From assembly GCA_014803525.1 (NCBI GenBank), contig JAAVBP010000004.1:121369-185368 (forward strand): a stretch of 64,000 nt of DNA, in the 5' to 3' direction. Below the pieces are notes generated by a model. That model saw nothing but the letters and a program-made list of their open reading frames with translations. It had not been told where the DNA came from and made no database searches. The first letter of the stretch is position 1; each line of letters opens with the position of its first letter. Below, piece after piece: positions 7,682-57,029 of this stretch. The stretch comes from a bacterium (GTDB lineage: Bacteria > Pseudomonadota > Alphaproteobacteria > Rs-D84). The position numbers were made by a program, and so were the translations under genes.

Positions 7682-8011
7682 TAAGAGCAGAAAAAATAAA
7701 GGGCAAGACCCTATTTTTTTATTTTCGGGGCACGAAATCCCCCAAAGTTCACAAAGTCCACAAAGTAAACCAAATCCCACACCACATTGCAAATCTAGTC
7801 AGTTATTATTTCTACGACGCGAAACAAAGGAGACGCAAACAAATGAATAGCAGTTAAACAACAAACCAATACAGCACAACGACTAATCAGTCTATGCGCT
7901 GATAAAACAAGAAATTTTAACCGTAAAACTCTCAGCTTGCAATCGCGGAATGCGATTCCTGTACGGGGATTTTTACACCTAAAAAGTCCAAAAATAACAA
8001 AGGAGAAAACA

Positions 8012-26143: not shown

Positions 26144-26524
26144 ATGAGAATGAAATTCATTATTCCAATATTACTGCTTGGCGCATGTGCATCCGTGAAT
26201 CGGGGCAGTATTGATAACGCCACAATACTGAATTGGGAAAATGAATCCGTCACGACCGAACAATTTGTTCGCGATCACAAGGCATGCCTGGGGATAACAA
26301 AACCATCTTATATGCCGCGGTCACGCCTGGCCAAACTGATTGCCCCGAACCAAAGCGGCATGATGCCGGATTGGGACGGCCTGTGGGTAACATTTCAATC
26401 AAATGAATACAAAGACGTGGGCCAGCGCAGTTTGATGTCCGTCCCACGCAACACAACGTCCAAGTCTGTTGGATATTATCGCAAATGCATGTTCCGTCGC
26501 GGATATTTGTTGCGTGCGATGTAA
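26144..26524 (+). CDS. Hypothetical lipoprotein
   Basis: Lipoprotein signal IIPILLLGAC; 126 aa. Confidence 0.45.
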   Translation: MRMKFIIPILLLGACASVNRGSIDNATILNWENESVTTEQFVRDHKACLGITKPSYMPRSRLAKLIAPNQSGMMPDWDGLWVTFQSNEYKDVGQRSLMSVPRNTTSKSVGYYRKCMFRRGYLLRAM

Positions 26525-26576: not shown

Positions 26577-27257
26577 ATGAAACGTTCATTCTGGTTTTGG
26601 CTGTGTTTTGTGGTGTCAATAATTCTGGCCACTTATTTTTCAGTGCGAATAATAATGACGGCACTGGGGCACGGAAATGTGGCCCACGTACATAATATAT
26701 CCATATCGGCTGATATGCGCGGACCGGAATTGGGCGCGGTGGCGGCGGCCGCGGCGGTGGCCCCGGGTGCACATTCATATTCGGTTGATTTGGATACATT
26801 GGCCGCACGCGTGTCCGACACCCCCGGCGTGCGCATGGCCGCCGTACGCCGCATGCCAAACGGTAATATTTCCGTACGCGTAAAAATGTATCGCGCCGTG
26901 GCCCAGTGGACCGATGGCGATGCGTTTTATCCACTGTCGGCGGATGGGACAATTGTGCGCCGCCCATCAGACGCACGCGATCCGGCATCTGTATTATTCC
27001 GTGGCGCACTGCCCGATGATATTTCCGAAATAACCGATGCCGCCCGCAATATGACGCGTTACATAAACTATCTGGAATGGATTGAAAATCGCCGATGGAA
27101 CATAATAACAACGGACGATATAAAAATAATGCTGCCCGAAGATAATCCGACCGCGGCGATTGCAACACTGATGATGCTGCAAAAGAAACACGATATATTA
27201 TCCCGCGACATTCACGTTATTGACATGCGCGACGATGCAAGAATATTGGTAAAATAA
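26577..27257 (+). CDS. ftsQ: Cell division protein FtsQ (POTRA-containing)
   Basis: N-terminal TM, periplasmic POTRA/FtsQ-like domain; immediately upstream of an ftsA-like gene in the conserved order. Confidence 0.6.
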   Translation: MKRSFWFWLCFVVSIILATYFSVRIIMTALGHGNVAHVHNISISADMRGPELGAVAAAAAVAPGAHSYSVDLDTLAARVSDTPGVRMAAVRRMPNGNISVRVKMYRAVAQWTDGDAFYPLSADGTIVRRPSDARDPASVLFRGALPDDISEITDAARNMTRYINYLEWIENRRWNIITTDDIKIMLPEDNPTAAIATLMMLQKKHDILSRDIHVIDMRDDARILVK

Positions 27258-27260
27258 CAA

Positions 27261-29039
27261 ATGAATCTGTTTGATTCTTCTTTCTTGTGTTTGGATATCG
27301 GCCGATCCGGCGTTCGCGGCGCGGCCCATCGCGTACGCAGTGCGCGCATTGATAAATCCGCCGTTTATTCTTTTGACAGCACAGACACCGTGTATGCATT
27401 AAAGTCTGTGATTGACGAATTGGAAAAACAAATCGGGGCGCATTTTGATACAGCATATGTAACCGGTGATTTTGGACCGGCCGAATTCAATATGACGGTA
27501 AAAAGTATCAATTGGGGCGCGGAACATAAAATCAGCACCGCCGACGTACGCAATCTGATATCCCAGATAACACCGCCAACCGGCATGTTTCCAATGCATA
27601 TAATTCCGCTACGTTACGACACACCGACGGCCCGAAACATTTTATCCCCAATCGGACATACAGACAACGCACTGGTATCCGCATTCAGCGCAATATTTTA
27701 CGACCAACCCAGAATGGACGAAATTATGTCCGACATGCGGCGCGCCCATATCCAGTCGTCGGGATTCTTTGACCCGCAATTTTTATTAAGTGCAACACTG
27801 CGCCGACCGCACGAAAACATAATGTTCATAGACTTGGCCGAAAGATTTACAACCGCATCCATATGGACAGACCGCGGTCCCGTTATGTTCAAGCAAATTC
27901 CGGTTGGCGGCGAAAAAATAACACGCGATATCGCAGAAAAAATGCATATAGATATAACGGCGGCAAACAGCATAAAACGTGCAGTTTCAACATTGATTCC
28001 GATGGAAATGGACCGATTTACCCCGGCCGATCCGGCATATGATTTTTCACGTGCGGATATAAACGAAATTATTTTACCGCGCATGCTGGAAATCGCCGCA
28101 CAAATAAAAGACGCCGCAACAACGGCGATCGGAAAATACAGACCGGTAAAAATAATGCTGACCGGGGGCGGCGCAGAAATAGATGGCGCAACAGACTTTT
28201 TTGAAAACATCTTTGCAATTCCAACAACAAAATTACCGTATGACGCAACGGCACGGGCGTTGGCGGCGTATGTATGGAAACTGCAATCACCACGCGTTGC
28301 CGCCGCACACGCCCGCCAAGAACGATGGGCACGTCGCACAAATTGGATTCGGCGCCGGTTTAATATAAAACGACGTCCACGCGCACGCTTTATCCCCATT
28401 ATGCCCAGTACATTATGCTTTGACATGCGACGCGATGACACATATTCACTGTTTAAATCCGGCGGCATATCAATGATTCATGTAGATATAATGGATGGTT
28501 TTTACGTTGACCGTGTCGCCGGCAGTATCGCCGAATTAAAACAAATTCGCGCACATACGGACGCACATCTGCACGTGCATTTAATGACGGAAAGTCCATC
28601 CGTTTGGGCCGCCGACGCAATTGCCGCCGGCGCAGATACCGTGATCGTATCAACCAATACATCCGGCCTGCGCGCGGCCCTGCGCGAGATTCGGGCGGCC
28701 GGTCGCCGATGCGGCGTGGCATTGAACCCGGATTCCGATGTATCAATATTAAAACCAATTTTGCGCGATGTTGATGAAATAATGGTTATGTCGGTTACCC
28801 CCGGTGCGGCGGGACAAAAATTTGATACCGACGCATTAAAGAAAATCGCAATACTGGACGCGACACGTAAAAAATATGGATTAAAGTATAAAATCACTGT
28901 TGATGGCGGAATAAATGCCGACACATCGAACCCATGCTGGACCGCAGGCGCGGACGCATTGGTGTCTGGATCATATCTGGCGCGCGCATCTGATTTTCCA
29001 TTGGCGGTACAAAGCCTGTTGCGGCACCCGGAAAAATAA
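27261..29039 (+). CDS. ftsA: FtsA-like actin-fold protein fused in-frame to ribulose-phosphate 3-epimerase (Rpe)
   Basis: N-terminal 370 aa: FtsA-like (LCLDIGRSGVR..., IMLTGGGAEIDGATDFFENIFAIP). C-terminal 215 aa: Rpe motifs (PSTLCFD...IHVDIMDGFYV, HLHVHLMTE, MVMSVTPG, VDGGIN). No stop codon between the two parts. Confidence 0.6.
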   Translation: MNLFDSSFLCLDIGRSGVRGAAHRVRSARIDKSAVYSFDSTDTVYALKSVIDELEKQIGAHFDTAYVTGDFGPAEFNMTVKSINWGAEHKISTADVRNLISQITPPTGMFPMHIIPLRYDTPTARNILSPIGHTDNALVSAFSAIFYDQPRMDEIMSDMRRAHIQSSGFFDPQFLLSATLRRPHENIMFIDLAERFTTASIWTDRGPVMFKQIPVGGEKITRDIAEKMHIDITAANSIKRAVSTLIPMEMDRFTPADPAYDFSRADINEIILPRMLEIAAQIKDAATTAIGKYRPVKIMLTGGGAEIDGATDFFENIFAIPTTKLPYDATARALAAYVWKLQSPRVAAAHARQERWARRTNWIRRRFNIKRRPRARFIPIMPSTLCFDMRRDDTYSLFKSGGISMIHVDIMDGFYVDRVAGSIAELKQIRAHTDAHLHVHLMTESPSVWAADAIAAGADTVIVSTNTSGLRAALREIRAAGRRCGVALNPDSDVSILKPILRDVDEIMVMSVTPGAAGQKFDTDALKKIAILDATRKKYGLKYKITVDGGINADTSNPCWTAGADALVSGSYLARASDFPLAVQSLLRHPEK

Positions 29040-29225
29040 AATCACACAATATCAAGAAAACCGGCATACGCCGGTTTTCTGTTTTTGCAAGCACATACTT
29101 GTTTTTATTAGGTCCAGGTTATTTAACCGTGAATCTGCAGGGATATGGTTCGGGGCCTGTTGAAAAGCCCATAAGCAGTGTCTGCATAAATATTATGCAC
29201 TATTAACACAAAAGAATAAAGGGGC

Positions 29226-44996: not shown

Positions 44997-45872
44997 TTAC
45001 CAATATAACCCGCGCAGTTTCTGACGCCATGCGCGCACCGGTATAATCGCGGCGATTACGCGCGTTATACTGCGCATTATATATGAAAACCTGTTGTTCG
45101 GAATCTTTTTATCTGTCGTCCCACGCAGCCATTTTGTACCACCGTATTTTGGTGTGTTCTTTTCGCGACTGATAATCTTTACCATAACCGCATCACCCGG
45201 CGCCAAGTGTTTCAGTTTATGTTCCGGATAACCATACGCCCGCCCACAGAGCAAGAAATCACGCGTCGCCAGATATGCATTCAGGTGACTTTCGTCATCG
45301 ACAACGGCATTGATTCCGTTTTTAATATCCGTCTGAACATTTTTGGCAAGTGCCCCACACATTTCCAAAAACGCATCCGCGGTACCGCCGTTGAACGCGC
45401 CGCATACATAATGACGCCCGGTACCGAACGGCACATATGCGGTGGATTCCGGTCTTCTTTCAAATGGGAATACATCTGGCGTATCACGCCAGATGTCGCC
45501 ATGGCGACCGGGATGCAAACTGGCGCACAATCCGCCGTCCCATTCACGCGGCGCAATTTCGGATAAATCTGTATCATTTATAAATTTGAAATTCGCATTG
45601 AAAAAGAACAAATAATCAAATTTAGACAATTCTTTTTTATGCGCATAAAACATTTCAAACCGCAGCAGACTGTCATACGGCCAACCGCGCTTTTGGGCCG
45701 GAATAATGGTCACATTCGGCATATCCATCGCCGGCGTTGGATTATCGGTCCAGATAAAATAATGTTTATCCGCATGCAGCAAATGTTTTTCACAGGATTC
45801 ATAAAATTCATCCCAAAACACCGTATAACGCCCCAGCGCAATGTATAAAATTCCAACCTTTGCCATAACCAT
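44997..45872 (-). CDS. Glycosyltransferase family 6 (ABO / alpha-1,3-GalT-like), bacterial NxN type
   Basis: ERRPESTAYVPFGTGRHYVCGAFNGGTADAF...DDESHLNAY parallels the GT6 ERRxxSAAYIPFGxGDFYYxGxxFGGT...WHDESHLNKY block; FNANF replaces the eukaryotic DVD motif, as in Bacteroides GT6; RBS AGGGGGAT. Confidence 0.7.
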   Translation of the reverse strand: MVMAKVGILYIALGRYTVFWDEFYESCEKHLLHADKHYFIWTDNPTPAMDMPNVTIIPAQKRGWPYDSLLRFEMFYAHKKELSKFDYLFFFNANFKFINDTDLSEIAPREWDGGLCASLHPGRHGDIWRDTPDVFPFERRPESTAYVPFGTGRHYVCGAFNGGTADAFLEMCGALAKNVQTDIKNGINAVVDDESHLNAYLATRDFLLCGRAYGYPEHKLKHLAPGDAVMVKIISREKNTPKYGGTKWLRGTTDKKIPNNRFSYIMRSITRVIAAIIPVRAWRQKLRGLYW

Positions 45873-54965: not shown

Positions 54966-57029
54966 ATGGCCGAAACATTTATTAACCAAGAAAATTTGAA
55001 ACAATTTCAGAACTGGCTGTTGAATTTAAAGACATCAGACCAGCCGGCATATAAATTGGCCCAGAATTTACGCTTTGACCTGCCGCTGGCGGTTATTCTG
55101 GACGGTGCGCCAACATTACCGCCACTGGCCCAGGAAGTATTGGCCCATGTTATCGCCGGACAACGTGGATACCAAGACCAGGCCGCAGATGCGAAAACAT
55201 TACTGGACATGGCCGAATTACAACCAATATTACTTGGCAAAGTATATGCCATATCCGGTAATTCTCACAGCGGACACATATATTCCAAATTATTACAAGA
55301 ACTGCGCAAACGCCCATTCGAAAAAAACATTCCGGCGATATATGCAATGATGCACTTTGGGCCTGTATATGGATCTGATGCGGGCATTGGTGACATAACC
55401 AAAACATCGGCCCAGAATACAAAAATCCTGAACAAGATTTTTGCAAATTCCGACAGTCGCAGCAACCGCGACCAATTCCGCAACAGCGCGTATGAATTTA
55501 TCAATAGTCTGGATATGAGCAAACTGTTAAATTTCGCCGGTGCATCAACGGAATTTCGCGCCCGCATAAATGCTGCAAACTTTAACGGTTGGAATAATGA
55601 TAAATATGACAAGATGGCGAAGTTAAATCCGGAACTGATTGATGAACAAATTCTGGCCAACTTTATTAATACGCCAAAGCCTAAACAGAAAGATATATCC
55701 GACGCTAAATCGCAAAAAGAAAAGAATGCAAATATTTTGCCAATATCTTATACCCGGCCACGCGATGCATTACTGCGCCTGGTCGAACGCCAGGAAATCC
55801 ATGATCCCAACAATTATGGTCATGAAAAAACATTGACCCAGCGGTACAATGATCTAAAGACCCGCATGCAAAAAGCAAAAACATGGCCGGCGGGTAATTC
55901 AGACTATGAAACATTGGCGCGTGATGTTTATCGCATGGTGATCCAGCGTGATATCATCGATGGTCGCGCGGCGGATTTATCCCCAGCCGAATTGGAATTG
56001 GCACTAAGCGCCGACAAAGACGGATTCTATGTACGTAAAGTGCCGGACAGCGTTTTAAAGAAATTGAACATTCGCCTGAACCGGCGCCAGGATGCAATCG
56101 TATCCGCACGCAATTCAACCAATCCAGATATGACAGTACGGTTGAATAAACTATCCTCTGCTGATAAACGCGCGGCAATTGAACGGGCACAGCGCACCGT
56201 TGCGGCGGACGCGCCCATGCGCGAACAATTGAATGCGGAATTGGCCGCATATGACCGGGATTTTAAAGAGGTAAAACTTGACAGTCTGAGCGCACAAGAT
56301 GCAAACACCGTTTATACCGACATGAAAGATATCCAGGCGGCATATAAACGCATTCGTGATAACTTCAAAGACGGCGCGCCCAACGCGCAAGAGGCGCACC
56401 TGACCACCCGCGAAATGGAACGCGCAATATATGGATATATTGTCAGTTCGACACCGCGCAAAATTGATATTCCCTCACAAAAAAGTCTGCCGATATTTGG
56501 GCGCGGTACGGAACAAAAACGCCGCGAAGCGATGGAAAATGCAATCAACAATTTTAACAAAGTACTTGCGAACGTGCGCGAACATATGAACCCAATACTG
56601 ATAGGTATGTGGGATCAGTATTGCGGTGCAATTTTGAATCCTGATTTTTTAAAGCACGCACATGACGAATACAACCGCGCATCAAAACTCGCTGAATCCA
56701 CAAAATGGGAATTTGACAGCACACATCGCAACCGCCGTACAATTGAGTCAGAACAAAAACAGTATGCGTTTAAAAAAGAACAGTTGGATAACGCAAAGAT
56801 TACTTTTGACCAGCAACAGAACCAAATGCGTGACATGTCACGTCGTCATATGGGCCACGACCAGACGGGCGAATTAACCCCGGTGACAAGCGACATGACG
56901 CCAGAGGAAAAGGCCCGCGCGCGCGAGAAAAATCGTAAAACACTGAACGATCCATTGGCCGCACGCAAGGGTAAAAAGCCTGCAAAAAATCTGGCTGAAA
57001 TGCTGGCAAATGCCGATATGGACAGATAA
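54966..57029 (+). CDS. Large hypothetical protein without signal peptide (orphan; possible secreted effector)
   Basis: 687 aa, Lys/Glu/Asn-rich, predicted helical, no recognisable motif; RBS CAAAGGATTC. Confidence 0.5.
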   Translation: MAETFINQENLKQFQNWLLNLKTSDQPAYKLAQNLRFDLPLAVILDGAPTLPPLAQEVLAHVIAGQRGYQDQAADAKTLLDMAELQPILLGKVYAISGNSHSGHIYSKLLQELRKRPFEKNIPAIYAMMHFGPVYGSDAGIGDITKTSAQNTKILNKIFANSDSRSNRDQFRNSAYEFINSLDMSKLLNFAGASTEFRARINAANFNGWNNDKYDKMAKLNPELIDEQILANFINTPKPKQKDISDAKSQKEKNANILPISYTRPRDALLRLVERQEIHDPNNYGHEKTLTQRYNDLKTRMQKAKTWPAGNSDYETLARDVYRMVIQRDIIDGRAADLSPAELELALSADKDGFYVRKVPDSVLKKLNIRLNRRQDAIVSARNSTNPDMTVRLNKLSSADKRAAIERAQRTVAADAPMREQLNAELAAYDRDFKEVKLDSLSAQDANTVYTDMKDIQAAYKRIRDNFKDGAPNAQEAHLTTREMERAIYGYIVSSTPRKIDIPSQKSLPIFGRGTEQKRREAMENAINNFNKVLANVREHMNPILIGMWDQYCGAILNPDFLKHAHDEYNRASKLAESTKWEFDSTHRNRRTIESEQKQYAFKKEQLDNAKITFDQQQNQMRDMSRRHMGHDQTGELTPVTSDMTPEEKARAREKNRKTLNDPLAARKGKKPAKNLAEMLANADMDR

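Follow-up and report, generated by a model that had tools for sequence, protein, structure and literature searches.

FtsA is among the most conserved proteins of the bacterial divisome, and is considered unable to function without its free C-terminal membrane-targeting helix. Anchor-swap work by Pichoff and Lutkenhaus in 2005 reportedly established that FtsA needs an amphipathic element to tether it to the membrane if it is to function, and that the element is a modular one. The canonical proteins of E. coli, T. maritima and S. aureus (1E4G, 4A2A, 7Q6D, 3WQT) have an actin-like fold with a 1C subdomain, and FtsA is normally bound to the membrane via its C-terminal amphipathic helix (PMC8897712). 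A stretch of 64,000 nucleotides from a gut alphaproteobacterium of the order Rs-D84 (assembly GCA_014803525.1, contig JAAVBP010000004.1, forward strand positions 121,369 to 185,368; hereafter the window) carries an open reading frame (ORF) in which an FtsA-like protein continues into a ribulose-phosphate 3-epimerase (Rpe). Judged by comparison of related sequences, this ORF is a genuine, lineage-wide and selected fusion and not a sequencing error.

Stand-alone Rpe enzymes, including those of S. pyogenes (2FLI), Chlamydomonas (RPE1, 7B1W) and human (3OVP), consist of a full (beta/alpha)8 barrel with a catalytic tetrad, three active-site methionines and phosphate-binding glycines. The tetrad chelates a metal, its two aspartates act as acid and base, the three methionines stabilise the intermediate, and Rpe dimers assemble into hexamers (10.1101/2022.09.29.510120). 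Enzymes have been connected to division before: in Caulobacter the metabolic enzymes GdhZ, KidO and CitA moonlight in the control of division or the cell cycle (PMC7083601). As in the fusion, a central-metabolism enzyme or fold is there physically tied to the machinery of division or the cell cycle; unlike it, these enzymes are proteins of their own, binding FtsZ or acting on CtrA, whereas the present enzyme is covalently fused to FtsA and is known from sequence. Engineered FtsA variants with altered anchors or tags are comparable in that the amphipathic tethering element behaves as a module, but they are artificial constructs. A literature search for an FtsA–Rpe fusion found no paper, and the literature searched describes no naturally occurring FtsA that ends in an enzyme domain.

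The fused reading frame and its distribution

The ftsA-like gene lies directly after ftsQ and, as the first-pass annotation had noticed, runs without a stop into a complete Rpe-like barrel; the ORF list shows a single frame of 592 residues. The motifs quoted in that annotation are located at residues 300–305 (LTGGGA), 406–413 (IHVDIMDG), 438–442 (HVHLM), 510–515 (MSVTPG) and 547–552 (VDGGIN). The frame is made up of the following parts, with model confidence given as the predicted local distance difference test (pLDDT) of AlphaFold2 (AF2).

27261..29039, + strand: fusion ORF, ATG start, 592 amino acids, stop codon 29037-29039, no in-frame stop inside
27261..28283, + strand: FtsA-type actin-fold domain, residues 1-341, subdomains 1A, 1C, 2A and 2B, AF2 pLDDT about 90-96
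28287..28361, + strand: linker helix, residues 343-367, strongly basic and amphipathic, predicted helix
28362..28394, + strand: polybasic unstructured stretch NIKRRPRARFI, residues 368-378, leading into beta-1 of the barrel, lower pLDDT, no secondary structure
28395..29018, + strand: Rpe (beta/alpha)8 barrel, residues 379-586, PF00834 at 143.3 bits against a cut-off of 21.1
28401..28403, + strand: ATG inside the frame (M381), sole candidate for a separate start of Rpe
28479-28481, 28485-28487, 28578-28580 and 28902-28904, + strand: codons of the tetrad H407, D409, H440 and D548, aligned to 2FLI

One genome per GTDB species was scanned for related loci, and the best 80 (59–77% identity, matching residues 1 to 584–592) were compared. 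The frame is uninterrupted in all 80 over 588–598 codons, and begins at a conserved start codon which is Met in 79 and a Val codon in one. In no relative are separate ftsA and rpe genes found at this locus. The 80 loci were assembled independently, in many studies and with many assemblers; one of them lies on a circular metaFlye chromosome (L066, OZ007020.1, 958,618 bp). The length of the linker is near-constant, with a variation of a few codons, and insertions or deletions within it are always multiples of three.

The same architecture is found well beyond these genomes. A search of 5.8 billion protein clusters gave 781 matches; all 120 of those listed are 556–596 residues long, contain both Pfam domains and are 63–78% identical to the query. 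At least 120 clusters thus have the same two-domain architecture, and the identical protein is present among them (P0001). The FtsA half alone (residues 1–343) was used for an exhaustive HMMER search of 1.84 billion representative proteins, which gave 924 matches. Here the best full-length matches were 552–623 residues long, down to about 25% identity, and were followed by ordinary FtsA proteins of 390–440 residues. On reading, the long matches (P0122, P0124, P0125, P0128, P0130–P0134, P0141–P0143, P0149, P0150, P0154, P0160 and P0161) all proved to be FtsA–linker–Rpe fusions, and the shorter close matches that were read (P0121, P0123, P0126 and P0127) either stop where their contig ends or contain a frameshift. 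Among the 1.84 billion representative proteins, no close relative turned up that is both complete and unfused. The nearest unfused FtsA, P0153, lies in a textbook dcw cluster with ftsZ downstream. With fusions and their ftsQ neighbourhood persisting in distant members, and the nearest unfused FtsA in a classical dcw cluster, the fusion is old and, as far as its distribution indicates, a signature of the whole lineage.

Where the genomes behind these proteins are named, they belong to Candidatus Enterousia or are listed as ‘uncultured Alphaproteobacteria/Rickettsiales’, and they come from the guts of humans and animals. Enterousia has been placed in the GTDB order Rs-D84 (PMC12306168, 2025). 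The genomes of this order are all reduced, mostly smaller than 1 Mbp and highly compact; they are without respiration and most biosynthesis, but keep MreB, RodA and MrdA and carry most of the non-oxidative pentose-phosphate pathway, transaldolase excepted (PMC12306168). Neither the fusion nor FtsZ is mentioned in that genome paper (PMC12306168).

A different join involving FtsA was met in another lineage, outside the window. In the 665-residue protein P0193 an N-terminal stretch of ~270 residues, similar to the C-terminal part of FtsZ, is joined to a canonical FtsA, and the protein looks like another natural FtsA fusion.

The two domains and the linker

An AlphaFold2 model built on a 44-sequence family alignment has a mean pLDDT of 89.3 and a predicted template modelling score (pTM) of 0.64. 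Its N-terminal part has an actin-like fold with a 1C-like insert at residues ~74–148. In a Foldseek comparison with the PDB, FtsA structures come first (1E4G, 4A2A, 7Q6I, 7Q6D and 3WQT), with template modelling (TM) scores of 0.65–0.73 normalised to the target over 350–390 columns, compared to 0.53–0.54 for PilM. At the level of sequence the profile match to FtsA is marginal (PF14450, residues 25–321, 33.7 bits against a cut-off of 31.8), and the FtsA half is only 13–18% identical to solved FtsA proteins. PF02491 (SHS2_FTSA), the profile of the 1C subdomain, exceeds its cut-off in the distant fusion members P0141 (26.1) and P0150 (33.2).

The nucleotide-binding motifs of canonical FtsA can be followed through this half. 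Phosphate-1 corresponds to LDIGRSG at residues 11–17. The LTGGGA motif (28158–28175) is present as first described, but it had been labelled phosphate-2, and this label does not hold: the motif aligns with the adenosine-motif region of T. maritima FtsA (vvltgggakipr) and is the adenosine motif. The counterpart of phosphate-2 is FIDLAERFT at residues 189–197, which is of the T. maritima type (D-L-G/A-x-x-F-T) and not DxGGGT. A loss of ATP binding had been suspected from the degenerate look of DLAERFT; the idea was dropped, as T. maritima FtsA, which was crystallised with ATP, has the equivalent NLGYNFT. The N-terminal half shares with canonical FtsA its fold, the phosphate-1 and adenosine motifs, the position of its gene directly after ftsQ and a predicted amphipathic basic helix after the last helix of the fold; it is probably the FtsA of these organisms. 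It differs from canonical FtsA in that no ftsZ lies downstream, and in that the amphipathic helix is internal rather than C-terminal and is followed by a 210-residue enzyme domain.

The 37-residue linker between the domains has a mean net charge of +10.6. A hydrophobic stripe is conserved among its Arg and Lys residues (Y349, I350, W356, W362, I363, I366 and F367), and the helix ERWARRTNWIRRRF has a hydrophobic moment (muH) of 0.61, compared to 0.62 for the membrane-targeting sequence of E. coli FtsA. The polybasic stretch that follows has the family consensus H/R/K-R-K-P-K-K-R. It had been proposed that the Rpe domain replaces the membrane-targeting helix; this is probably wrong, in that the basic helix with its W/I/F stripe at residues 343–367 occupies the position of the FtsA tail. 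The linker helix is probably the former membrane-targeting helix of FtsA, now an internal inter-domain linker. Because a basic amphipathic helix still sits between the domains, the membrane-targeting element was probably retained.

Fold, Pfam score and catalytic residues all place the C-terminal half in the Rpe family, and both the profile matches and the barrel of the model span residues 380–586. It aligns with S. pyogenes Rpe over its full length (2FLI; E=1.4e-36), and Foldseek superimposes the two with a TM score of 0.91, a root mean square deviation of 1.7 Å and 34% identity. It barely passes the cut-off of the Rpe subfamily NF004076 (166.4 bits against 165), and scores 136 against a cut-off of 271 for AlsE (NF007266). 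The catalytic Asp and His residues, the absence of which would have counted against the fusion reading of the first-pass annotation, are all present on alignment to 2FLI, together with the active-site methionines M411, M442 and M510. The His/Asp/His/Asp tetrad and the three methionines are invariant in 44/44 close family members. Among diverse fusions the tetrad is kept in 16/18, and its loss was seen in P0133, P0134 and P0289. The barrel differs from stand-alone Rpe in its N-terminus, which is covalently joined to FtsA via the basic linker, in the loop PGAAGQ in place of PGFGGQ, in scoring under the rpe equivalog cut-off and in the catalytically dead state of some family members. Among solved structures it is closer to Gram-positive and plastid enzymes than to proteobacterial ones. 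Given that most of the non-oxidative pentose-phosphate pathway is present in these genomes, the barrel is most likely an active epimerase in this one.

Selection was estimated by the method of Nei and Gojobori (NG86) in 25 closely related pairs. The ratio of non-synonymous to synonymous rates (omega) was 0.03–0.08 for the FtsA part, 0.01–0.10 for the Rpe part and 0–0.47 for the linker, and the mean pairwise amino-acid identity was 63%, 77% and 38%, respectively. Both halves are functional proteins under strong purifying selection, and the linker is translated in-frame under weaker constraint.

One lineage departs from this picture. P0134 is encoded on contigs of 146–198 kb with 25.6% GC, in the same synteny and gene order as the window; with its relative P0289 it represents a sister lineage (loci L083/L084 and L087). 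In P0134 and P0289, H-x-D is replaced by Y-T-T/S and D-G-G by C-G-D, with the changes H to Y, D to T and D to C, and the PG..GQ and SGS phosphate-binding motifs are lost. The nucleotide motifs of the FtsA part are eroded too, with D to S in phosphate-1 and the adenosine GGG motif lost. Nevertheless both barrels still score 85–89 bits on PF00834, and between the two proteins the Rpe-derived part is 81% identical with an omega of 0.21, compared to 73% and 0.39 for the FtsA part, although synonymous rate (dS) estimates are unreliable here. P0133 has undergone a similar catalytic loss, and a search for relatives of P0134 gave one dead-Rpe sequence only, P0289. These observations suggest that something other than catalysis maintains the barrel in the 25.6% GC lineage. 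Since Rpe enzymes form dimers that assemble into hexamers, oligomerisation of FtsA via Rpe contacts is the obvious candidate role by analogy. CitA, which acts independently of catalysis, offers a parallel to the dead-Rpe lineage.

Gene order around the fusion

The stop codon of the ftsQ-like gene lies 3 nucleotides upstream of the fusion start, in keeping with the annotated position of the ftsA-like gene directly after ftsQ. The flanking features on the same strand are as follows.

26577..27257, + strand: ftsQ-like gene, 226 amino acids, PF03799 (FtsQ_DivIB_C), E=6e-9, probably co-transcribed with the fusion
29055..29090, + strand: intrinsic-terminator-like hairpin and T tract, 16 nucleotides past the stop codon, a consensus match only

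The hairpin at 29055–29080 has a stem of 11 bp with 6 GC pairs and is followed by GTTTTTGCAA. From the opposite strand, tsaE and uvrB converge on the fusion. An ftsQ homologue lies directly upstream of the fusion in 79/79 loci examined and also in the distant loci L081, L083 and L087; in distant fusion loci the order lolD–lolE, two unknown genes, a small lipoprotein gene, ftsQ, the fusion, tsaE, uvrB and asmA is largely kept. In the window, the genes between lolDE and ftsQ (24294–26524) encode proteins of 444 residues (- strand) and 106 residues (- strand) and a lipoprotein-like protein of 126 residues (+ strand), all without a Pfam match. The three are syntenic with ftsQ and the fusion in ~56/79 related loci as well as in L081, L083 and L087.

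The remark that no ftsZ follows and that the dcw arrangement is altered extends to the whole lineage. A tblastn search with E. coli FtsZ found no ftsZ anywhere in the 64 kb of the window, in any of the 80 loci taken with flanks of 6 kb, or in L081–L085, and no Tubulin/FtsZ domain is called in L087. In the control locus L086, which has the classical gene order, the same query finds ftsZ at 55% identity. The window does contain lpxC (62564–63499, - strand), which does not adjoin ftsZ, unlike the common ftsZ–lpxC adjacency; in the distant fusion loci L081 and L085, lpxK–lpxC lie within a few kb of the ftsQ–fusion pair. No second copy of rpe or ftsA occurs within the window, and a Pfam scan of 30 ORFs of the window brought up neither tkt nor rpi.

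Other parts of the window are of separate interest. A probable integrated mobile element at 7937–19203 encodes a 592-residue protein with a C5 cytosine methylase domain within its C-terminal half (7937..9715, + strand), a 1207-residue ORF without a Pfam match (12686..16309, - strand) and a large serine recombinase (17485..19203, + strand). At 44997–45872 (- strand) this reduced-genome gut alphaproteobacterium encodes a glycosyltransferase of family 6 (PF03414, E=4.5e-26), the family of the ABO blood-group transferases. A VirD4/TraG-type coupling protein is encoded at 41540–43804 (+ strand), and at 57383–62027 (- strand) the genes for a PilB-like ATPase (T2SSE), a T2SSF platform protein and a PilO-like protein are clustered; these represent secretion or pilus machinery, and may relate to the proposed partner-dependent lifestyle. 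A 687-residue ORF at 54966–57029 (+ strand) has no Pfam match at E<=1e-5.

Proposed role and competing explanations

The reading that we regard as probable is that of a genuine ancient fusion, made as a single polypeptide of ~66 kDa, in which Rpe would be held at the membrane beside FtsA in Enterousia-type reduced-genome gut Alphaproteobacteria. The likely origin would be a step in which rpe came to lie downstream of ftsA in the place of ftsZ, followed by loss of the ftsA stop codon. The basic amphipathic inter-domain helix would still set the protein against the membrane's inner face, and because it does so the Rpe barrel would be held there beside FtsA. From the general geometry of such barrels, the linker is expected to enter at beta-1, on the N-terminal, non-catalytic face opposite the active site; the active site would stay free because of this. 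In this genome the barrel would most likely interconvert ribulose-5-phosphate and xylulose-5-phosphate for the partial non-oxidative pentose-phosphate pathway. Less well supported is the idea that the barrel has also become structurally important to the FtsA half, for instance through Rpe dimer or hexamer contacts; it comes from one AT-rich lineage in which three of the four catalytic residues have been lost and the domain is nevertheless under selection.

Several observations weigh against this reading or some part of it. All genomes behind the fusion are metagenome-assembled genomes or metagenome contigs, and a long-lived fusion can also reflect difficult gene fission rather than functional advantage. 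The FtsA half is very divergent, scoring 73.6 bits against a cut-off of 175.85 on the FtsA equivalog TIGR01174 and E=7e-4 against T. maritima FtsA. The Rpe half reaches 150.8 of the 212.6 bits set for the rpe equivalog TIGR01163, and as it misses this strict cut-off its exact substrate is not certain. The moment of the linker lies modestly over that of shuffled controls (0.68 compared to 0.57, with 44% of sequences above the mean plus one standard deviation), and the most divergent fusions (P0149, P0150, P0160 and P0161) have a short basic proline-rich linker in place of the helix; on account of both, membrane targeting by the linker is a role that we infer. Finally, the argument for a structural role comes from one pair of proteins in a 25.6% GC lineage with unreliable dS estimates.

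Possible, if somewhat unlikely, is a frozen accident, in which the domains work independently and without coupling, and the fusion survives only because the mutations that would split it are hard to come by in small streamlined genomes. Such an origin would suit the small size (<1 Mbp) and high compactness of Rs-D84 genomes (PMC12306168), as well as the intact catalytic residues of most members. The linker is the least conserved part of the protein, at 38% mean identity, and a pTM of 0.64 together with high pLDDT suggests that there is no fixed packing between the domains. However, no fission is seen down to ~25% identity, and the length and charge of the linker are conserved. Moreover, the dead Rpe is retained at an omega of 0.21, whereas one would expect an appendage of no selective value to decay or to disappear by deletion.

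A stronger form of coupling is offered tentatively and is rather unlikely. In it, the barrel would be an integral divisome module in Rs-D84, whose dimer and hexamer contacts would cluster FtsA and the internal helix on the membrane. Binding of pentose phosphates might tune FtsA assembly where catalysis is intact, and the barrel would be purely structural where catalysis is lost, with ftsZ possibly relocated or absent.

It is improbable that the N-terminal half is a diverged FtsA- or PilM-like paralogue with another role, and that the true ftsA–ftsZ pair lies elsewhere. A sequence score far under the FtsA equivalog cut-off, weak matches to PilM, an ftsZ that is not adjacent, and the presence in the window of genes for a type IV pilus-like ATPase, a platform protein and a PilO-like protein could all be read in this way. 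They are countered by the position of the fusion directly after ftsQ in every locus and by TM scores that favour FtsA over PilM (0.65–0.73 compared to 0.53–0.54). The FtsA-specific SHS2 1C domain is detected in family members, and the 64-kb window holds no second ftsA-like ORF.

The synthesis of two products, the fusion and a free Rpe begun at ATG 28401 (or at TTG elsewhere), with a soluble Rpe pool and the fusion as a by-product, has a similarly small probability. The internal start at about 28400 that had been pointed out does exist as an ATG at 28401; it has no ribosome-binding signal, and it is not conserved across the 80 sequences. M381 takes the position of Ala in the usual Rpe N-terminus IAPSIL, and the codon there is ATG in 33 sequences, TTG in 18, TTA in 25 and CTG in 4. 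A potential start codon (ATG or TTG) is thus found in 51/80, and TTA or CTG in 29/80. The 25 nucleotides before M381 are C-rich coding sequence, without the Shine-Dalgarno-like, purine-rich or AT-rich leader typical of real starts; absence of a Shine-Dalgarno motif is weak evidence, as a clear core is found in only 10/26 window genes and about half of the window genes are without a clear motif. A start at M381 would also cut off part of beta-1, the beginning of which is formed by the nearly invariant F377, I378, P379 and I380. A separate Rpe product is not, on this comparison of codons and leaders, a conserved feature.

The first-pass annotation had left it undecided whether the fusion is genuine or hides two genes behind a frameshift or assembly artefact; the former is strongly supported, and the latter, a false join of ftsA and rpe through a stop codon or base lost in this assembly, which the resemblance of each half to a complete stand-alone protein and the ATG at the Rpe start might have suggested, is refuted because 80/80 related genomes from independent assemblies keep the uninterrupted frame, as do a circular long-read chromosome and hundreds of metagenome clusters, and because linker indels are all multiples of three and the linker is under purifying selection in this frame.

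Taken as a genuine fusion with a membrane-held barrel, the protein gives a whole order an FtsA whose tail would lie enclosed, with the actin fold on one side and an enzyme barrel on the other, and whose gene has no ftsZ next to it. The database names for the fusion proteins are only ‘ribulose-phosphate 3-epimerase’ or ‘hypothetical’, and because of these labels FtsA would be scored as missing and Rpe taken for an ordinary enzyme when the metabolism and cell biology of these reduced-genome gut symbionts are reconstructed. FtsA would appear to tolerate, or exploit, a large C-terminal cargo, and the lineage may serve as a natural experiment on how a membrane-targeting helix works when it is internal. 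The dead barrel retained in one lineage suggests structural co-option of an enzyme fold, in line with the moonlighting enzymes of Alphaproteobacteria. The finding would be weightier if the barrel serves the divisome in a structural or regulatory capacity, or if ftsZ is missing from these genomes. If the barrel is indeed an integral divisome module, the fusion would constitute a hard-wired link between sugar-phosphate status and cytokinesis.

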